From NCBI GenBank assembly GCA_041736305.1, contig JBGSTX010000325.1:1-29191 (forward strand): 29,191 nt of DNA. The letters are read 5' to 3'. Both the position numbers and the translations under genes were made by a program. Below the pieces are notes generated by a model, which was not told the origin of the DNA, did not search any database, and was given only the letters and a program-made list of their open reading frames with translations. Of the stretch, positions 17,676 to 26,690 are shown one piece after another (positions within the stretch are counted from its first letter, which is position 1; each line of letters opens with the position of its first letter). The stretch is from Oligoflexus sp. Lineage in GTDB: Bacteria > Bdellovibrionota_B > Oligoflexia > Oligoflexales > Oligoflexaceae.

Positions 17676-18299
17676 TTATAGAGAGCGAAGCACGGCTCTC
17701 ACCGGTGAGGCATCTGCTCCCTCGATCGCAAGCGGCAATGCGATAAGTTCGTAGAGTCCTGGCGAGGCCAGTGTAAGATCTATTCCTTCTAAAATAGCCA
17801 TATCATGATGAAAGATCGCATGATGCGACAAGAGATCTTTCGCACTCGCTGGATCGATCGACGGCGTATCGATACCAATGAGTCGTACATCGCGGCTGGC
17901 TAGTTCATGAATTAGTTCGGGAGAGAGGGAAGCAAAATTTTCTTGGAAAGGTTCCTGGTGAGCGAAAGTCAGGCTTCGAAATAAAACTCTTGGTGCAGAG
18001 ACTGCTTTGAGATTAATGTCCGAAGCCAGTAGCCTCCGGGGGCCCACATGGCTCACATCGATCACCTGACAAGGGCCCATATAGTAATCGAGCGATCGCT
18101 TCTCAATGCTCACTCCCTCAGCATGATAGTGATAGGGAGCATCAGCATGAGCTCCAATATGGACAGTCGACTTTATCCAAGAGAGGCTGAGGTGAGCTCC
18201 CTTGTCCCAGTCGAGCATGATTTGGCGCTCGAACGCCTGGTCCCCTGGGAAAACAGGGCTCTCGGGGCGAATAGGGGGAGAAATATCAATATAGCTCAT
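17676..18299 (-). CDS. kynB: Kynurenine formamidase (arylformamidase, cyclase family)
   Basis: DISPP...VFPGD, metal motif HIGAHADAPYH, YMGPC, LIGIDTPS.DP..SxxL..H, MAILEG and YELIALPL...DASPVRAVLR closely resemble Pseudomonas/Bacillus KynB. GGAG RBS. Confidence 0.9.
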   Translation of the reverse strand: MSYIDISPPIRPESPVFPGDQAFERQIMLDWDKGAHLSLSWIKSTVHIGAHADAPYHYHAEGVSIEKRSLDYYMGPCQVIDVSHVGPRRLLASDINLKAVSAPRVLFRSLTFAHQEPFQENFASLSPELIHELASRDVRLIGIDTPSIDPASAKDLLSHHAIFHHDMAILEGIDLTLASPGLYELIALPLAIEGADASPVRAVLRSL

Positions 18300-18321: not shown

Positions 18322-19737
18322 CTAAGGCCTCGCTAATACCTTGAACTCCACAGCTATTGGTGTGGGAAGCGCTCCGACCTCGACCGTAGTACGGGTCGGC
18401 CTAATCGAAGCAAAAACTTCATTGTACACTTCATTGTAAGCGGCGAAGTCGTGCTGCATATCGGTAAGAAACACCTGAATGTCGATGATTTTTTCGAGAC
18501 TCGATCCAGCTTCCTCGAGGACTTTGCGGAGGTTTTCAATGACTGAACGCGTTTGCTCGCGGATATCGTAGCTGAGGAGCTTGCCATCTGGGTCGAAGAC
18601 GGCCCCAGGAATCTCCTTGCTGCCTAGTCGCCTGGGACCGATGCCGGAGAGAAAGAGTAAATCGCCATAACGCCGGGCATGGGGGTAGGCTCCTACGGGT
18701 TCTGCAGCTTTCGTGCTGACGATCTCATAGTCCAGAGGGCCTATGCTTTTAATAGCAGGCGCTGTGCTTTCCAGGCTCACTCTCGAACGAGGGGTGGCTG
18801 GCCGGCTCAATCCTTCGAAATCAGTTAACTCTTCGACAAGCTCAGCCTGGCTACCTTCTTCCGAGCGAGCGTAGGCCTCGGGATCCGGAGCAAAAATGGG
18901 TCGAGTGGGTTTCAGACCTACCACCGCCGCTCCGCTCCCCATGACTGCTTCGTAGCCATAGACTCGTCCTTCAAAATCGTTCGACTGACCGAGCAGGCCA
19001 TTCAGCCACCAGATCCCTTTGAACTTCATGTCGCCGTTGGCTTGCCTCGCAAAATCGCGTGCACACTGGGAAACGTCTTCGACGTGACCCATAGCCAGCA
19101 TATCGAGTATCTTGCGATTCCATTCGTCGTCTTTTTTCGAGGAGAGGCGATCTTCCCGAGGATCGATCTTTTGGACGTGGAAACGGTTTGAAAGATTCGA
19201 GACCAAGACTACGACCGCACGCTTGCCTGAAGCAGCTAAGGCCCGAGCCGCAGCCTGACCGATTCTCGTCGTCTCTTCCTTTTCACTGTACATATTGCAC
19301 GACACTATAGCCGCCGGCAGCTCATTATTGGGATTGAGGAGCTTCTGCGCGACGATGGTACCTGTATCGATAGGGAAGCCCCGATAATTGATCAGCCTTG
19401 TCTTGTAGGAGAGACGGGCGACTTCATCGGCATACTGCTCCGCAAAAGGAATATCACATTTGAACTGATAGGGAATGGAACCTAAGTCATGCCAGTTCTG
19501 GTCGACGTGAACCCAGGAAGGCTCAGGATCAGCCTGAAACATATAGCCGAGAATTGAAAGCCATTGAGTCGAAAAATATAAGATGAGATCGGCTTCTTTG
19601 GACGCTGACTCGATCTCTTTTTGAACTTCGGTATAGGCATCTCGAAGCCGCTGCCACGTAGGCGAACGTTCAGGAGCCAGGAGAATTTGCGGCATACCGC
19701 TGACTATGTAAGCCTGAGTAACTAGTCCTTCGTTCAT
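18322..19737 (-). CDS. amnA: Fusion of 2-aminophenol 1,6-dioxygenase alpha subunit (N-terminal) and RidA-family 2-aminomuconate deaminase (C-terminal)
   Basis: The N-terminal domain has FSTQWL, VHVDQNW, NYRGFPIDTGTI, IDPREDR..DDEWNR and GSGAAVV, as in AmnA/CnbCa. The C-terminal ~135 aa have PVGAYPHARR.GDLLFLSG, DF..YN.VY and PTRTTVEV.ALPTPIAVEFK. ATG at 19737 overlaps the upstream TGA (TGATG). Confidence 0.88.
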   Translation of the reverse strand: MNEGLVTQAYIVSGMPQILLAPERSPTWQRLRDAYTEVQKEIESASKEADLILYFSTQWLSILGYMFQADPEPSWVHVDQNWHDLGSIPYQFKCDIPFAEQYADEVARLSYKTRLINYRGFPIDTGTIVAQKLLNPNNELPAAIVSCNMYSEKEETTRIGQAAARALAASGKRAVVVLVSNLSNRFHVQKIDPREDRLSSKKDDEWNRKILDMLAMGHVEDVSQCARDFARQANGDMKFKGIWWLNGLLGQSNDFEGRVYGYEAVMGSGAAVVGLKPTRPIFAPDPEAYARSEEGSQAELVEELTDFEGLSRPATPRSRVSLESTAPAIKSIGPLDYEIVSTKAAEPVGAYPHARRYGDLLFLSGIGPRRLGSKEIPGAVFDPDGKLLSYDIREQTRSVIENLRKVLEEAGSSLEKIIDIQVFLTDMQHDFAAYNEVYNEVFASIRPTRTTVEVGALPTPIAVEFKVLARP

Positions 19738-20633
19738 CAACGCTGGCCCCCTAAGCTCGGATTCCACTCTACAACTGCATTACCGGTACCGATCACTGTT
19801 CCATAAGCGTGCACTTCGGCTCTGTAAGTTGGGACCCCCAAGGCTTCAAGCATCCAAGCTAGGCCTCCTGCTTTGGTTTCGGAACTGGCCATATCGATAA
19901 ACTCAGGCATGATGTCGAGCAATTCCCGACACTGCCCCTTGCGCATCATGTCCAGAACTTTCATATCCCACAGATACTGGCCGTGGTGATGAATCCGCTC
20001 ATAGGCCATGTCTTCGGGGATATCAGGTTCGTGCACAAAATGCCGGTGGGATAATGAGGAAGAAGCCAGTAGAACGCAGCGCTTACCTGATTCACTTATA
20101 GCAGCAGCGGTCGCCCGTCCCAGGGAAGCGGCCAGCTCTCCTCCGATTTCATTTGAGAAGTAAAAAGCCGCCTGATTTGCCGACAGGAGGACTACGGGTA
20201 TATCCCAGTCTGGGTTAATCATATGCAGACTGATGATACTGCCATAGTCCAAGCGAAAATCTGGGTTTGTGACTACGCTCGTCGCCATGCCGGCTCGCTC
20301 GCAGGCAGCGCGGATACCGAGCGAAAGCTCGACATCCACGGCTACATCGTAGTGATAGCGAAAGAGATGCGGGAATATCGGATCTACCGAGAGGCCCTGG
20401 AATCGAGGGAGTCCCAGAAAATGCTGTCCTACATAAGTCGGCCAGTGGGGTGAATGGACAATCAAGACGTCGGGTGCGAGAGCCTTGATATTCTTCCTGC
20501 AACGTTCGTAACCCCAGCGCAGCATTTCCCAACCGCACTCGGCGCGAGCTTCATTTTGCGCTGGATTGTCGGCATACACCAAGTGAGGTGGATGCGGAGC
20601 TAAAACGCCAGCGATGATTTCGCCTTTGGCCAT
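19737..20633 (-). CDS. amnB: 2-aminophenol 1,6-dioxygenase beta (catalytic) subunit, LigB-family extradiol dioxygenase
   Basis: GEIIAG.LAPHPPHLVY..NP.QNE, GWE.LRW.YER, VHSPHW, SVDPIFP, DYG, LSH.HF..EP.IPEDM and YGTVIGTGNAV.EWN are near-diagnostic for AmnB/CnbCb. The Fe-ligand His/His/Glu positions are retained. Start at ATG 20633 with a GGGGAG RBS. Confidence 0.93.
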   Translation of the reverse strand: MAKGEIIAGVLAPHPPHLVYADNPAQNEARAECGWEMLRWGYERCRKNIKALAPDVLIVHSPHWPTYVGQHFLGLPRFQGLSVDPIFPHLFRYHYDVAVDVELSLGIRAACERAGMATSVVTNPDFRLDYGSIISLHMINPDWDIPVVLLSANQAAFYFSNEIGGELAASLGRATAAAISESGKRCVLLASSSLSHRHFVHEPDIPEDMAYERIHHHGQYLWDMKVLDMMRKGQCRELLDIMPEFIDMASSETKAGGLAWMLEALGVPTYRAEVHAYGTVIGTGNAVVEWNPSLGGQR

Positions 20634-20644
20634 GGTTTCTCCCT

Positions 20645-22090
20645 TTAAATCTGCAAGCAAATATTCTTCTCTTCCGTGTAGAATTCAATCGAATGACGAC
20701 CGCCTTCGCGACCAATTCCAGACGCCTTCATCCCTCCGAAGGGGACCCGAAGGTCGCGGTTCATCCAGGTGTTGACCCAAACTTGAGCTGCTTCGATGTC
20801 ACGGGCTGCCCGATGGGCGGTATTGATATTTTGCGTCCAGATACTGGTTGCAAGGCCGTAACGAGTCTGATTGGCAAGCTGGATGGCTTCCTCGTAGGTC
20901 CGGAAACTACTGACTGTGACTACGGGACCAAAGACTTCTTCTTGGATGATTTCAGCGCTTTGATCGCTCACCAGCAAAACCGTGGGTTGAAAATAATAGC
21001 CTCCCTCGAGCTCCCCTTCCAACGAAAGCCGCTTACCTCCTGTCAATAACTTCCCCTGTCCGTCAGCCGTAGCACGCGAGATATATCCTTCCACTTTCTC
21101 TAGATGCTCCTGGCTTACAAGCGGTCCCATGAAAGTAGCCGATTTTTGGGGGTCCCCCACTTTGAGATTCTGGGCAGCAGCTACGAAAGCTTCAGAAAAG
21201 CGAGGCAGAAGGCTCTCTTCAACCAAAAGGCGCGAGGTGCAGAGGCAGATCTCTCCCTGGTTGAGGAAGCTTGAACGAAGACTGCCCCGCAGAGCAGCTT
21301 CCAAGTCGCAGTCCGCAAAAATAAGACCTGGATTCTTGCCGCCTAATTCAAAACTCAATTTTTTGTAAAAGGGCGCAGCTCGCTTGCCGATGCGAGCTGC
21401 GGTATCCGTTCCACCTGTGAAAGAAATAAGAGGCACGAGAGGGTGCGCAACCAAAGCATCACCGGCAGTTTCCCCTCGGCCAAAGACGATATTGCAAACA
21501 CCGGGCGGGATACCTGCGCTATTGAAAAGCTCGGCCAGCATGAAGGCTGTCATGGGAGTTAGCTCAGATGGTTTAGCGACCACAGTGTTCCCTGTGGCCA
21601 GAGCAGGAGCTATCTTCCACGTGAGCAGATAGAGGGGCAAATTCCATGGAGAAATGAGGCCTGCCACGCCAAGCGGCTGCCGCATTGTATAGTTGATGAT
21701 TTCAGGCGAAGTCTGAAACGCAGCTTCTTCCTGATGCAGGATTGCGCCGGCGAAAAAGCGAAAATTTTCGATGGCCCTTGGGATATCGACCATCCTAGCT
21801 AGCTCGATTGGTTTACCCTGGTCGCGGCTTTCTGCTTCTGCAAAAGCTTCGCTGCGCTCTTCAATGAGAGCCGCCAAGCGCAGTAGTATCGCAGCCCGTT
21901 CCTGGCGTTTGAGATTCTTCCAACTGCAGAATGCGCGAGCTGCTGCCTTCACAGCCGCTTCGACATCCTCCGCAGTGGAGTCGGGAAGACGACTATAGGC
22001 TTTTCCATCTCGAGGACAGTAATTATCGAGATATCTTCCATTCAATGGAGGAGACATCCGACCGTCAATGAAGTTGGCTATTGCTTCCAT
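20645..22090 (-). CDS. amnC: 2-aminomuconate 6-semialdehyde dehydrogenase (ALDH8/HMSDH family)
   Basis: [47 protein letters not shown], catalytic [10 protein letters not shown], and W..RDLR.PFGG.K.SG.GREGG..S. Confidence 0.9.
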
Positions 22091-23126
22091 AATTATCCTG
22101 CCAGCCTTTCACGTAAGAGTCAGCTTGATAGTACCAGCGATCCTGATCGGGATCCCACTCGTCCCACGCTTGAATGTCTTGCATGCGATGTCTGAGCGAA
22201 GGCGGGATGAGTTCGCTCACGATAAAAGCTTTCTGTCTTTCCAGTGGATAAGGATTACGAAGCTCAAAACCTAAAACTCCAAGTACCCAGCGTGCAACAT
22301 ACCAGGTCGCGCGGGGGTCCCAACCATGAGCGATCTTGATGACCACGCCGAGACCTTCTGGATAATCAGGATGGAGAAGACTCAGTCCGAGCAAGCCGTC
22401 GGCACCTTCTTTAGCAATCACCTTACCCGCGCAAGATTTCAAAATGGTCGAATCCAGTCGATTGAAGCCACCGATATGATCGGGATACTGCACCATCGAC
22501 TCCCAGATCCAATCTTCATCCTTTCGTACAGCCAGATCAGCAAAGAGCGCGGCTAACTCATTGACTGTCATACCTATCGTTGGCAAACCACAGCCGTCTT
22601 TAGCGACGATATTATGAGTCGGCGGAGCGCCTAAAATTTCATTTACCTTTTCAAGATAGAGCTGGTGAAATGGATGCTGGGGTAGAGTGTAGCCCACCCG
22701 CGGCCAATGCTTCAGGGCACAGGCGCGGATGATGGCAGCGTGTTTCCCCGAACAGCTATGGTACCAGCGCCTTGGACGACGCAGCTGCTTGCCGAATTGC
22801 ATGAGAGGTAGAGCATGGGGGGTCTGAAGTAGACCGTATTCGGATGGCTTCAGGATATCTTTCACGGCTTCAATATGTATAGGTTCCGCGTTGTGTGACG
22901 CGATTGATACGGCCTTGGAGCTTGGGCTGAGATGAGGATCGAGATCTTTGGCTAGAACCTTGATCTGGACCGGCTTCATCATGGAGCGTCCATAGCAGAG
23001 GACATTCCCACCATAAGAATGGTAGAGATTCTTGCCTTTAAACCAAGCTATCGCCCCATATACTGTGACTTCAGGTACACCATTGCGCCGGTAATCGACG
23101 AGGGGCACCCAGGAATTCTCATGCAT
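22065..23126 (-). CDS. Class 3 (Rhizobium etli-type, Asparaginase_II) asparaginase homologue
   Basis: Class 3 motifs RSMMKP, ASH, SCSGKH, DGCGLP and AKEGADG. Start is ATG 23126 or 23135. The 3' end overlaps the ALDH start by 26 nt. Confidence 0.85.
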   Translation of the reverse strand: MHENSWVPLVDYRRNGVPEVTVYGAIAWFKGKNLYHSYGGNVLCYGRSMMKPVQIKVLAKDLDPHLSPSSKAVSIASHNAEPIHIEAVKDILKPSEYGLLQTPHALPLMQFGKQLRRPRRWYHSCSGKHAAIIRACALKHWPRVGYTLPQHPFHQLYLEKVNEILGAPPTHNIVAKDGCGLPTIGMTVNELAALFADLAVRKDEDWIWESMVQYPDHIGGFNRLDSTILKSCAGKVIAKEGADGLLGLSLLHPDYPEGLGVVIKIAHGWDPRATWYVARWVLGVLGFELRNPYPLERQKAFIVSELIPPSLRHRMQDIQAWDEWDPDQDRWYYQADSYVKGWQDNYGSNSQLH

Positions 23127-23136
23127 ATCCCACATC

Positions 23137-24369
23137 CTAGGCCAGCAAAGGCCTGGTTTTACGCCAAAAAGCTTCCATACTGGCTTTTACAGCTCGATTG
23201 TCGTGATTGTTAAAGTCGAACCAGAGCATGAGTCGATCATCGGCATGGTACTTCGATCGAAGCTGTTCAGCGACATCCGTTGGATTTCCATAAACAGCAT
23301 TCTCAACGGCTTCACTTACTTTGCGCGGATCGAGGGTGCCTTCCACTGCGTGCCAATAGTTCTCGATCGCCTTCCTAGCGGCAGCTTTCGCGTGTAGCCT
23401 TTGCTCTTCCTGGGACAGATGCTCGTCGCCGTTGATGAAAATCAAAGCGGTGCGAGGCATATAGCTTCGATGCCAAGGCCCTCCGTCGGGATGATAGCAG
23501 CGCCGCATTCTTTCGTGGGTGGCTTCTATAATTGTGCTCGGCGTGATGGAAAGATTGAAAACCCAGCTCGGGAAATAGCGATTGGCCAGCTCCTGCACGG
23601 CCGGATCATGCGATCCTGCAACAAGTTGTAGAAGCTTAAGGGGGGCTTGGAAAGGAATGACTCCTAAGCGGTCGAAAGTCCAGAAGGAGGGAATTACTAT
23701 CGCTTCGGACTCCTCTTGCCTTGCATATTTTGCATTTTGATTGGCCGCGACGATTGTCTCCCATGTAGTCGCGTCTCTAATCGCTTCTTTCTTCAGGATC
23801 ATGGCTTCGATGTCATCCGATCCAAAAGGTTTTGAACCGAGAGCACGCAGAAATATTTCGGTCGCACTTTGAAAGATCAGCCCCTTGATCGGCCCCCAGG
23901 CAAGCTCTTCCAGCTGATTGCGGGGTTTGATTCCATAAGGCTGGTTGGAAAAAGGAAAACGCCCTGCGGCGAAGCCCAAGAAAATCTTGCGAGTCTCGGC
24001 AACGTCCAGACTTTGCAAAGTGAGAAACGTTTTGAGTGCCTCTGCATGCGCTAAGGGGCCACCGTTACACAGTATATTGCGGATTGCCGAACCCACCTGG
24101 ATTCGTTTGGTCCTCTGAAAAATTTTGTGGGCCAGCTGCAGAATGTCGGTGTTGAGACCGATTTCACCCTTAAACTGAGGAATGACCGCCCCTGGGTTGA
24201 GCTTCTGCACTTCGCATGAAAGATGGGACTCCGCGACCCATGCGGTTTCAAATCCAAGTCGGTCAGCGAGTTGGAGCTGATCAAAAAAATTTTCGAACAT
24301 CTCTTTCTCGCTGGGTATGACGGCATCAACCTCAGTCTGGCAGATCGAAAAAAAGACATCGAAGTTCAT
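23137..24369 (-). CDS. Luciferase-like (LLM class) flavin-dependent monooxygenase
   Basis: Q..LAD.LGF.TAWVAESH, RTKRIQVGSAI, LGFAAGR and C-terminal GNP.DVAEQL follow the LuxA-family TIM-barrel pattern. ATGA overlap with the SDR stop. Confidence 0.85.
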   Translation of the reverse strand: MNFDVFFSICQTEVDAVIPSEKEMFENFFDQLQLADRLGFETAWVAESHLSCEVQKLNPGAVIPQFKGEIGLNTDILQLAHKIFQRTKRIQVGSAIRNILCNGGPLAHAEALKTFLTLQSLDVAETRKIFLGFAAGRFPFSNQPYGIKPRNQLEELAWGPIKGLIFQSATEIFLRALGSKPFGSDDIEAMILKKEAIRDATTWETIVAANQNAKYARQEESEAIVIPSFWTFDRLGVIPFQAPLKLLQLVAGSHDPAVQELANRYFPSWVFNLSITPSTIIEATHERMRRCYHPDGGPWHRSYMPRTALIFINGDEHLSQEEQRLHAKAAARKAIENYWHAVEGTLDPRKVSEAVENAVYGNPTDVAEQLRSKYHADDRLMLWFDFNNHDNRAVKASMEAFWRKTRPLLA

Positions 24370-25151
24370 AGGCTCCCCGTGCGCCCACCATCGATGGGTA
24401 GGTTTATTCCATTTATGTAGGCGGCCATGTCTGACGAAAGAAACGTGCAGGCATAAGCTAGTTCCCTAACTTCTGCAAAGCGCCGAGCCGGGATTTCAGC
24501 TTTCATCAGCGTCTCAAGCTCTTCTCGAGTTTTTTGCGTTCTGCTCATCTGCCTGCCGATAATTTGCTCGAGCCGATCCGTGACCGTGAAGCCAGGCAAG
24601 ACATTATTTACGGTAATCCCATAGGGACCTAATTCATAAGCTAGGGTCTTGGCCCAATTTGCTACAGCCCCTCTCACTGTATTGGAGACTCCGAGTCCGG
24701 GTATGGGAACTTTGACGGAAGTAGAAATGATATTAATGATACGTCCAAATCGACGCTCTTTCATGCCCGGTGCCAAAGCTTGGACGAGCAAAGTGGGGGT
24801 AAGGAGATGCTGATGGAAAGCAGTCTCCAGCTCTTCGACGCCCGCATCTAACAAAGGACCAGGGGGCGGCCCTCCACCGTTGCAGAGCAGAATATCAACA
24901 TCGCCGCCTATGTCAGCAATTACATGTTTAACTTCATCTAGCTTACTGAAGTCGCAAGCTATCGCGCGGTGCTTTCCTTTACTGCCAGGGAGACCTGCAC
25001 ATGTTTCCTGAAGCTCTGCACTAGGTCTAGCCAGAAGTGTCAATCGCGCACCGGTTTTAGCAAAAGCTTCAGCACAGGCTCGACCAATTCCCTTTGAACC
25101 TCCGCAAATAAGAGCGTGTTTACCCGCCAAGGTTTCGGAAGAAAAATCCAT
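24366..25151 (-). CDS. Atypical short-chain dehydrogenase/reductase (SNxxR in place of YxxxK)
   Basis: ALICGGSKGIGRA, DILLCNGGGP, GRIINIIS, SNTVRGA, GITVNNVLPG and YINGINLPIDGG. Start placed at ATG 25151 because it has a GAGG RBS and a promoter lies inside the longer ORF-track extension. Confidence 0.87.
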   Translation of the reverse strand: MDFSSETLAGKHALICGGSKGIGRACAEAFAKTGARLTLLARPSAELQETCAGLPGSKGKHRAIACDFSKLDEVKHVIADIGGDVDILLCNGGGPPPGPLLDAGVEELETAFHQHLLTPTLLVQALAPGMKERRFGRIINIISTSVKVPIPGLGVSNTVRGAVANWAKTLAYELGPYGITVNNVLPGFTVTDRLEQIIGRQMSRTQKTREELETLMKAEIPARRFAEVRELAYACTFLSSDMAAYINGINLPIDGGRTGSL

Positions 25152-25187
25152 CGCTAGCCTCATCATCAAAGGGCATAAAGTGCTGAG

Positions 25188-25216
25188 GTTATACCGATCC
25201 ACTTCCGAACTTGCAA
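25188..25216 (-). promoter_or_regulatory. Sigma70-type promoter for the 7-gene catabolic operon
   Basis: Minus strand reads TTGCAA (25216-25211), a 17 nt spacer, then TATAAC (25193-25188), about 37 nt upstream of ATG 25151. Confidence 0.65.
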
Positions 25217-25451
25217 TCTGCGACTTCGCCAGAAACTTGATTAGCACCACATCCTATGAAACAACAGAAGAAGGGTCGCTCATATTCACCGTCAAAGCGG
25301 AGAGGTTACTGCGGCCTTTCGGTGAAAATTTTGTCCTTTGCATCGCTCGTTTTTCCTGCTTCGTATCCGATCCAGAGTTTCCCAGTCAATATTTATGAGT
25401 CAAAGCTCTGAAAAAAACGGGTTCGGTCTTTGAAGGAAAAAGGAAAATGAA

Positions 25452-26690
25452 ATGACTCAGGGGTCCGGAAGTGCAAGTGCGCTCAGTGTCCAGATTTTAG
25501 CGTCTTCTACGGAGACTGCTACAGACGCCGTCAAGATTCTACGTGAAGCCGCCTTACCCTATCAGATTTTTGAAAAATCAGAAGATCTCCTGCAAGCTCT
25601 CGAAGCAAGTCCCGGGGTCTTGCTCTTTGTAGAGAATGTGCTCGATGAAGATCTGCTCAAAAAGCTCAGGGTGAGACTAGCAAATCAAGCTGCCTGGTCA
25701 GACATTCCCGTCATTGTTACTCGCAAAATTTTTGCCTCGGAATCCACGAAGCCGACTCCTTGCCAAATACTTACAGCCTTGAATAACGTCACCATACTCG
25801 AAGGTTCTTTAACTTTCATAACCTTGCTGAGCGTCGTGCGCACAGCTTTAGCAGCAAGGAAAAAGCAACTAGAGATCAGGAACTTGATCGAAAGAGAGCG
25901 TGCTATTCGACAGACCGTGGAACAGACGAGTCGTATCAAAGATGAATTTCTCGCTACCCTATCCCACGAGCTGCAGACACCTCTCAATGCAATAGTAGGA
26001 TACTCCGAACTGCTGCCTCTAGAAGATCCGAACTCACCGGCTTTTTCCGAGGCAATTGAACAGATCAACCGCAATGCCCACATTCAGTCTCAGTTGATCA
26101 ACGACATCCTCGATCTTTCTAACATCATTACAGGCAAGCTCGGCCTGAGGGTTGAGCCGGTTTGTATCAAAGAACTCGTCAATGACGTCATTAGAGGGTT
26201 TCGCTGCGCGGCTAAAGCTAAGAGTCTGTGCCTGCACGTAGATCTCGACGAAGCTAAATCCATTCTTTTGGCTGACGCATCAAGGCTACGTCAGGTCATA
26301 TGGAACCTGTTTTCTAACGCTATCAAATTCACTCCAGAACATGGCCACATCTGGATTTCTCTCCGCGAGGAAGACGAGCATCAACGCCTTACCATCAGCG
26401 ATACAGGTAAGGGAATCGAGCATGAGTTTCTGCCTTTTGTATTCGACTTATTTCGCCAGCAGGAGGCTGGCTTCAATCGCACTTTCGGCGGCTTGGGTCT
26501 TGGTCTTTCTATTGTCAGGCACTTGGTCGAAGCTCACGGGGGCGAGGTTCATGCCCAAAGCCGTGGCCGCGGGGAAGGGGCAAGTTTTACGATCGTGCTT
26601 CCCGTCCTACACAAAGAGTCAAGCGCACCTCTCCTCTATGAATCACTGCAAAAAAGCGACGATCACGACGCAGGTTTCACGCTTTACTAG
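25452..26690 (+). CDS. Cytoplasmic sensor histidine kinase (degenerate receiver-like N-terminus, HisKA, HATPase_c)
   Basis: H-box FLATLSHELQTPLNAI, N-box RLRQVIWNLFSNAIKFT, G1 DTGKGI, F-box FDLFRQ and G2 GGLGLGL. No transmembrane segment. Confidence 0.92.
   Translation: MTQGSGSASALSVQILASSTETATDAVKILREAALPYQIFEKSEDLLQALEASPGVLLFVENVLDEDLLKKLRVRLANQAAWSDIPVIVTRKIFASESTKPTPCQILTALNNVTILEGSLTFITLLSVVRTALAARKKQLEIRNLIERERAIRQTVEQTSRIKDEFLATLSHELQTPLNAIVGYSELLPLEDPNSPAFSEAIEQINRNAHIQSQLINDILDLSNIITGKLGLRVEPVCIKELVNDVIRGFRCAAKAKSLCLHVDLDEAKSILLADASRLRQVIWNLFSNAIKFTPEHGHIWISLREEDEHQRLTISDTGKGIEHEFLPFVFDLFRQQEAGFNRTFGGLGLGLSIVRHLVEAHGGEVHAQSRGRGEGASFTIVLPVLHKESSAPLLYESLQKSDDHDAGFTLY

Follow-up and report, generated by a model that had tools for sequence, protein, structure and literature searches.

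Kynurenine has two known aerobic fates, each of which requires kynureninase. A third fate may be encoded in a 29,191 nt stretch of Oligoflexus sp. DNA (NCBI GenBank assembly GCA_041736305.1, contig JBGSTX010000325.1, positions 1 to 29,191 of the forward strand; hereafter the window). A seven-gene operon in this window includes the gene of a divergent luciferase-like monooxygenase-family protein of 410 aa (LLM; positions 23137–24369, minus strand) and, directly after it, that of an asparaginase-like hydrolase (AsnII; positions 22065–23135, minus strand). We favour, with a probability of roughly 60 %, the reading that LLM supplies the oxygenase half of a two-component Baeyer–Villiger monooxygenase (BVMO) that depends on FMNH2 and acts on kynurenine, with the product then being hydrolysed to aspartate and 2-aminophenol. 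Such a role is supported by comparative genomics and by the predicted fold; the choice of flavin and substrate, the type of reaction and its intermediate are our inferences, and the Baeyer–Villiger chemistry is taken by analogy from what is established for type II BVMOs and o-aminophenyl esters. With somewhat better than even odds, LLM and AsnII would fill the two gaps in a widespread and so far undescribed route of tryptophan catabolism that bypasses kynureninase and ends in amn ring cleavage.

In luciferase and the diketocamphane monooxygenases (DKCMOs), a flavin peroxide attacks a carbonyl. LLM differs from the type II BVMOs of Pseudomonas putida (2,5- and 3,6-diketocamphane monooxygenases; PDB 4uwm, 5aec) and from LuxAB, with which it shares only 14–21 % identity, in its length of 410 aa, in a conserved loop particular to its family (residues 52–66), in an insertion near residues 180–230 and in having Ser or Thr in place of the first of the two His of EHH. 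Moreover, its proposed substrate is an amino acid bearing an aryl ketone, used in primary catabolism, and the protein is paired with an asparaginase-like hydrolase. The proposed route shares its pathway logic with the 4-hydroxyacetophenone monooxygenase system of Pseudomonas fluorescens ACB, where the monooxygenase and an aryl-ester hydrolase convert an aryl ketone via an aryl ester to a phenol that is subjected to ring cleavage. However, that monooxygenase is a type I, FAD- and NADPH-dependent single-component enzyme with an unrelated fold, the esterase belongs to another family and the substrate is not an amino acid. RutA (PDB 5wan, 6sgl) is a farther structural match to LLM than luciferase or DKCMO, and the Rut system acts on uracil with a hydrolase, RutB, of the isochorismatase family, unlike AsnII (PF06089).

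Kynureninase (KynU, TIGR01814) resembles the proposed LLM–AsnII pair in that kynurenine supplied by tryptophan 2,3-dioxygenase (TDO) and the formamidase KynB is converted to an amino acid and an aromatic amine, whereas kynureninase is a pyridoxal phosphate-dependent C–C hydrolase that yields alanine and anthranilate and uses no O2. AsnII, in turn, belongs to the same family as the class 3 asparaginases ReAV and ReAIV of Rhizobium etli, although its matches to the solved enzymes are those of distant relatives (E 5.5e-14 to PDB 8cly, 1e-9 to PDB 7os3), its gene is tied to that of LLM in both LLM subfamilies and its proposed leaving group is 2-aminophenol rather than ammonia. The window cluster also resembles the amn, cnb and nbz clusters of Pseudomonas sp. 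AP-3, Comamonas CNB-1 and Burkholderia xenovorans LB400, with which it shares AmnB, AmnA, an AmnC-type aldehyde dehydrogenase (ALDH) and a RidA-type deaminase. Those clusters receive 2-aminophenol from nitrobenzene or aniline-type pollutants, whereas the window cluster carries KynB, LLM and AsnII instead; furthermore, its AmnA and deaminase are fused, and decarboxylase, hydratase and aldolase genes are absent from it.

The proposed route

TDO, which is encoded elsewhere in the Oligoflexus genome and adjacently in many relatives, would act with KynB to produce kynurenine, and LLM would accept L-kynurenine, or N-formylkynurenine before the action of KynB. A flavin C4a-peroxide on LLM would attack the aryl ketone, with migration of the electron-rich 2-aminophenyl group yielding the beta-(2-aminophenyl) ester of aspartate, which could be converted by an O-to-N shift to N4-(2-hydroxyphenyl)asparagine, an N4-substituted asparagine. 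AsnII would form a beta-aspartyl enzyme, from which 2-aminophenol and then L-aspartate would be released, and AmnBA, ALDH and the RidA domain would carry 2-aminophenol via 2-aminomuconate to 4-oxalocrotonate. Reduced FMN would be delivered by a general reductase encoded elsewhere, and the net output of the route would be formate, aspartate and 2-aminophenol. This is the only one of the routes we could construct in which AsnII, the obligate neighbour, has an obvious substrate directly after LLM.

The luciferase-like protein

LLM matches PF00296 with 40.4 bits (cut-off 27.9) over residues 6–112, while a relative of subfamily B spans positions 1–304 of the 314 profile positions; subfamily A denotes the LLM type of the window and subfamily B a type that is 34–39 % identical to it. 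An AlphaFold model of LLM built on 16 relatives (mean pLDDT, the model's confidence score, 85.7) has the LLM-type (beta/alpha)8 barrel, and the Foldseek search with this model matched LLM barrels only, HcbA1 among them. Luciferase and DKCMO rank among the structures nearest to LLM, and the protein is closer to this type than to other LLM branches.

In profile alignments, the AESH motif (residues 46–49) stands opposite AQHH, LEHH and AEHH of 8k74, 8cbb and 4us5, respectively, an arrangement of AE(S/T)H against xHH which implies that the first His is replaced by Ser or Thr and that the second (H49) is kept. This site may correspond to the active-site His44/His45 region of LuxA after beta-2. E47 and H49 are invariant in all 14 LLM sequences of subfamilies A and B, and the residues common to both subfamilies also include S51, R137, R150, N272, S274, T276, H285, R306, T307, W383 and N387. 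The family comprises more than 120 protein clusters that are at least 56 % identical over their full length, with a mean column identity of 71 % in the family alignment; its size and the 496 loci described below show the gene to be genuine. The loop at residues 52–66 is present in both subfamilies, with Q55, K56, V62, I63 and P64 being invariant; it is modelled with low confidence and may form a mobile lid.

Dependence of LLM on F420 was rejected, since cofD (TIGR01819) was not found in the Oligoflexus genome (92.7 % complete; the control matched in 7 genomes) and the nearest structures are FMN oxygenases rather than F420 enzymes. The LLM-barrel matches and the lack of cofD thus gave no sign of the clustering with F420-dependent reductases that the original prediction had named as evidence against itself. 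A search of the ESM Atlas with LLM returned unnamed LLM clusters only, one of them archaeal, and provided no functional lead. A eukaryotic gene model of 1501 aa (EukProt ANDGO_01838, P0121) contains an N-terminal full-length LLM (43 % identity, residues 1–434) followed by GATase and ApbE; this is the only fusion found among the longer LLM-bearing proteins and, as a single gene model, too weak to use, just as a lack of fusions in such a search carries little weight. If the fusion is genuine, its ApbE (FAD:protein FMN transferase) domain could hint at FMN; alternatively, the model could have arisen from merged genes.

The partner hydrolase

AsnII is a class 3 (R. etli type) asparaginase-like Ser–Lys hydrolase (Pfam Asparaginase_II, 1.8e-49), and its motifs RSxxK, ASH, CSGKH, DGC and KxGAxG align with those of 8cly. 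This alignment was used to map residue roles to the residues named in the available passages of PMC12292245, according to which Ser48 of ReAV is the nucleophile and functions with Lys51, Ser80 and Lys263, Arg47 anchors the alpha-carboxylate of L-Asn, and Cys135, Lys138 and Cys189 are zinc ligands. R50, S51, K54, S80, H132, D180 and K242 of AsnII are invariant in all 20 cluster-associated sequences of both subfamilies, and these include the equivalents of Arg47, Ser48, Lys51, Ser80, Lys263, His139 and Asp187 of ReAV. Within the metal site, C128 and C182 are nearly invariant, as are the equivalents of the three ReAV ligands overall, while K131, mostly Lys, is Glu or His in 5 of the 20 rows. AsnII therefore has the Ser–Lys tandems, the Arg anchor and the Cys/Lys/Cys metal site of a class 3 L-asparaginase, as far as those passages define one. 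The invariance of the catalytic residues, together with the Arg anchor, indicates that the acyl-binding half of the asparaginase is kept, which fits the needs of a predicted beta-aspartyl ester or anilide substrate.

Conservation of the gene neighbourhood

LLM loci were confirmed at 496 sites in species-representative genomes, whose records name Oligoflexia, Bdellovibrionota, Acidobacteriota, Sericytochromatia, Planctomycetota and Gammaproteobacteria; among the last is an isolate, Alteromonas sp. a30, with an LLM–AsnII pair at L016. Neighbours were counted in the best 80 of these loci by tblastn with the seven window proteins (at least 40 % identity and at least 45 % coverage) and comprised ALDH (58 loci), the short-chain dehydrogenase/reductase of the operon (SDR; 53), AsnII (52), AmnB (43), AmnA (37) and KynB (20). 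TDO lies within 14 of the 80 loci, is Pfam-confirmed in 4 of them and directly abuts LLM in one (L056). Among the loci flanked by 6 kb or more at each end, 44 in all, only two have none of the counted neighbours.

LLM, AsnII and KynB form minimal clusters with TDO close by in two loci (L065 and L075), and LLM–AsnII–KynB clusters also occur in L011 and L098. In subfamily B, AsnII is directly beside LLM in 10 of 10 loci (L085–L093 and L099; e.g. L085:8001–10192), even though these hydrolases are only 27–32 % identical to the window AsnII, with their partner LLMs being 34–39 % identical to the window LLM. The pair is followed there by an RluD-like housekeeping pseudouridine synthase, with no other kyn or amn gene nearby, and AmnBA, Rid, ALDH and SDR are encoded at a separate locus of the same genomes. 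The minimal clusters and the adjacency in subfamily B indicate that the conserved core is the LLM–hydrolase pair.

A gene of a major facilitator superfamily transporter and/or an amidohydrolase was also observed near the subfamily B pair in several loci. In L065 and L075, an ORF of 207–217 aa (L065:10986–11609 and L075:10863–11516; the copies are 40 % identical) lies between KynB and TDO; it was considered as a hidden flavin reductase and rejected, as no Pfam or NCBIfam match was obtained at E up to 1.

Co-occurrence with tryptophan catabolism

Two samples were analysed, namely 131 genomes of the phylum of the window and, as an independent lineage, 151 genomes of the class of G134. Matches in the phylum sample were found for TDO in 104 genomes, KynB in 84, LLM in 72, AmnB in 67 and kynureninase in 19 (18 over the cut-off and one cut off at a contig end). 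The 72 LLM genomes include 70 with TDO, 68 with KynB, 65 with AmnB and 3 with kynureninase, and the 16 genomes with kynureninase only all have TDO and never AmnB. At the family level, seven families have LLM only, three have kynureninase only and two have both, mostly in different genera. The close type of AsnII (E 1e-40 or better) was detected in 41 genomes of this sample, all of which have LLM except G006, where the AsnII gene (G006:C32:72053–73060) contains an in-frame TAA; this looks like decay after the loss of the partner.

A similar pattern was obtained in the second sample, with TDO in 35 genomes, AmnB in 30, AsnII in 29, LLM in 28 and kynureninase in 13. The 28 LLM genomes have AmnB in 28 cases, AsnII in 27, TDO in 27 and kynureninase in 1, and in 26 of them TDO is located 781–2338 nt from LLM on the same contig. 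In five further LLM genomes, drawn from other groups, TDO is present in 5/5, AmnB in 3/5 and kynureninase in 0/5. Viewed from the dioxygenase, LLM is present in 65/67 and 28/30 of the AmnB-positive genomes of the phylum and second samples, respectively, while LLM and kynureninase occur together in only 3/88 and 1/40 of the genomes carrying either. These associations, like the neighbour counts, run against the possibility, raised in the original prediction as a reason to abandon it, that LLM orthologues would mostly occur without amn and kyn genes.

In the Oligoflexus genome, TDO is located on another contig (G000:C109:18170–20250; L096:7959–10037), and kynureninase was not found at 92.7 % completeness. 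The own-genome TDO gene immediately precedes a class I/II aminotransferase gene and adjoins a divergent LysR regulator gene. 3-Hydroxyanthranilate dioxygenase was also not found in this genome, by a search whose control likewise matched nowhere. An anthranilate route that requires KynU, proposed initially as an alternative, is disfavoured because kynureninase was not found in the own genome, nor in 69/72 and 27/28 of the LLM genomes.

A group of near-complete genomes of one genus (G118–G129) shows only weak TDO-family matches (E about 1e-12) and sub-cut-off kynureninase-like matches; LLM and AmnB were not found in them and KynB was reported for none.

The operon and its lower module

The operon extends on the minus strand from 25250 to 17676 in the order SDR, LLM, AsnII, ALDH, AmnB, AmnA–RidA, KynB. 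The SDR (24366–25250; Pfam adh_short_C2, 1.9e-41) precedes LLM, and its stop overlaps the LLM start in ATGA, while the LLM stop is separated by 1 nt from the ATG of AsnII; the later junctions overlap or are 22 nt apart. Accordingly, the translational coupling claimed for the LLM gene was confirmed, as were the description of its product as a 410 aa LLM-family protein with AESH in the place of EHH (by ORF, PF00296 and profile alignments) and its standing as the sole hydroxylating-oxygenase candidate of the operon. A promoter and terminator scan of the operon gave counts no higher than the shuffled level. A soluble-looking histidine kinase of 412 aa (HisKA and HATPase_c; 25452–26690, plus strand), encoded divergently 201 nt upstream, is a possible regulator of the operon.

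The genes downstream of AsnII, all on the minus strand, encode an ALDH of the 2-aminomuconate/2-hydroxymuconate semialdehyde dehydrogenase type (AmnC-like; 20645–22090; Pfam Aldedh, 1.1e-167), which scores 541 bits against TIGR03216 (NCBIfam; under the cut-off of 693), followed by AmnB, the catalytic beta subunit of 2-aminophenol 1,6-dioxygenase (19737–20660; PDB 8ihg_A, 1.7e-106, 359 bits; 3vsg_B, 4.4e-105), and the AmnA–RidA fusion (18322–19767; Pfam LigB and Ribonuc_L-PSP). In this 481 aa fusion, residues ~14–284 form the non-catalytic AmnA subunit (PDB 7txy_A, 1.5e-56, 195 bits), and residues ~350–479 form a RidA-type domain with the 2-aminomuconate deaminase 6izh as its best solved match (3.4e-23). 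Both dioxygenase subunits are thus close kin of the solved AmnBA/CnbC enzymes. In other loci, Rid is encoded separately beside ALDH (e.g. L019, L102 and L103). The last gene of the operon encodes KynB, a kynurenine (aryl) formamidase (17676–18299; PDB 4cog, 1.3e-45; 4cob, 2e-44), which scores 212.6 bits against TIGR03035, just under the equivalog cut-off of 223. The closeness of AmnB to 2-aminophenol 1,6-dioxygenases, together with the match of the Rid domain, implies that an o-aminophenol must be made, from a precursor linked to kynB and TDO and without kynureninase.

The SDR is directly upstream of LLM in 50 of the 74 loci with enough flank. Its orthologue is found in the Rid–ALDH–SDR/AmnBA locus at 7 of the 8 AmnB loci of subfamily B genomes, and these orthologues have the window SDR as their best match in the Oligoflexus genome (142–169 bits, as compared with 84–107 bits for the next). 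A role of the SDR as the flavin reductase of LLM is disfavoured, since it is absent from the LLM–AsnII clusters of four AmnB-less genomes and from 10/10 subfamily B LLM loci. As the orthologue travels with the amn locus and is missing from the LLM–AsnII clusters, the SDR is probably part of the lower (amn) module. In the own genome, a classical lower meta-cleavage pathway appears to be lacking: a DmpG-type aldolase was not found, and two genes of the FAA_hydrolase family were the only ones detected, both elsewhere (C231 and C50). The lack of a DmpG-type aldolase makes a reductive exit from 2-aminomuconate toward 2-oxoadipate worth considering, and the SDR of the operon could, speculatively, be the reductase of such an exit.

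Alternative explanations

Several observations weigh against a Baeyer–Villiger role for LLM. The protein has lost the first His of EHH, Pfam recognizes only its residues 6–112 and its identity to solved LLMs is as low as 10–21 %. A dedicated flavin reductase did not emerge: the families PF01613 and PF03358 are absent among the 23 window ORFs scanned (4 ORFs have no Pfam match), as the original prediction had stated for the window; a scan of 97 proteins encoded near LLM in related loci gave no flavin reductase; and the own genome lacks PF01613 and has only two FMN_red genes, on other contigs. Moreover, LLM and kynureninase are both present in G005, G066, G069 and G159. In the phylum sample, neither of the two accompanies TDO in 18 genomes, and AmnB was undetected in 7 LLM genomes. 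The related genomes are not independent, and Fisher values for the co-occurrence therefore overstate its significance; for this reason, weight is placed on recurrence across families and phyla instead. Finally, the Baeyer–Villiger product and 3-hydroxykynurenine are isomeric and indistinguishable by genomics. This last point leads to the strongest rival, in which LLM would be a ring 3-hydroxylase analogous to kynurenine 3-monooxygenase, AmnBA would cleave 3-hydroxykynurenine, itself an o-aminophenol, and AsnII would function as a serine C–C hydrolase that frees aspartate from 3-acyl-2-aminomuconate. Such a scheme arrives at the same end products (aspartate and 2-aminomuconate semialdehyde) and makes use of every gene, the LLM family includes aromatic hydroxylases, as the HcbA1 match illustrates, and the computed results do not separate the two isomeric products. 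We nevertheless consider ring hydroxylation unlikely, as LLM–AsnII(–KynB–TDO) clusters were seen in genomes in which AmnB was not found (G008, G010, G131 and G132). In subfamily B genomes, the location of AmnBA, Rid, ALDH and SDR apart from the adjacent LLM and AsnII genes implies that the hydrolase tracks the oxygenase and not the dioxygenase. In addition, AmnB is very near to enzymes for unsubstituted or chloro-substituted 2-aminophenol, and the class 3 asparaginase machinery is, in the available passages of PMC12292245, known for C–N cleavage only.

A slightly less probable option is that LLM is not an oxygenase at all but a flavin or F420 reductase or dehydrogenase, a protein lacking any cofactor, or a subunit that assists the hydrolase, with the aminophenol oxygen being introduced by an enzyme encoded elsewhere. 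The absence of cofD from the own genome and the FMN oxygenases among the nearest structures argue against it, as does the finding that the clusters conserve no other oxygenase candidate, that neither kynureninase nor 3-hydroxyanthranilate dioxygenase was found in the genome (with the above restriction on the control for the latter) and that LLM accompanies AmnB in nearly all AmnB-positive genomes of both samples. A substrate unrelated to tryptophan, such as a xenobiotic aminoaryl compound or amide, with the kyn link being an incidental co-regulation of aromatic-amine catabolism, appears very improbable. It would suit the amn clusters known from pollutant degraders (according to the abstracts of PMC3790839 and PMC6742747), the location of the own-genome TDO on another contig and the sub-cut-off score of KynB. 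However, TDO is next to LLM in 14/80 loci and within 2.4 kb of it in 26/28 genomes of the second lineage, it is present in 97 of the 100 LLM genomes of the two samples, LLM and kynureninase are near-exclusive, and most carriers, as their records indicate, belong to predatory or oligotrophic lineages rather than to pollutant degraders.

Significance

No paper describing the LLM oxygenase or a kynureninase-free route was found in the full-text literature searched, which does not extend to subscription journals, and a paper on the ARO microcompartment of Actinobacteria (PMC10470539) mentions neither kynurenine nor luciferase, asparaginase or tryptophan. In the passages available from Pasternak et al. 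2015 (PMC4646340), kynA was described as the best marker of predatory bacteria, obligate predators were noted to lack any other gene of the pathway, and 'another, unknown pathway' was suggested. The LLM cluster would answer this puzzle, as put in those passages, for many Bdellovibrionota lineages, but not for the genus of G118–G129.

If the Baeyer–Villiger reading is true, a third route for kynurenine would be added that brings in a further reaction type, the Baeyer–Villiger oxygenation of an amino acid, and a so far unseen function for an asparaginase class that is poorly understood. LLM would be the first FMN-type (type II) Baeyer–Villiger oxygenase to use an amino acid as its substrate in primary metabolism. 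The 2-aminophenol dioxygenases would thereby gain a natural, non-xenobiotic source of their substrate, and, with 496 loci counted in species-representative genomes, automatic annotation would be corrected for hundreds of species. The reading would also account for the many TDO-bearing Bdellovibrionota, Acidobacteriota and others that lack every known downstream gene of the kynurenine pathway. The very divergent LLM and the adjacent AsnII probably equip many bacteria to degrade tryptophan when kynureninase is lacking, with kynurenine being split into aspartate and 2-aminophenol.

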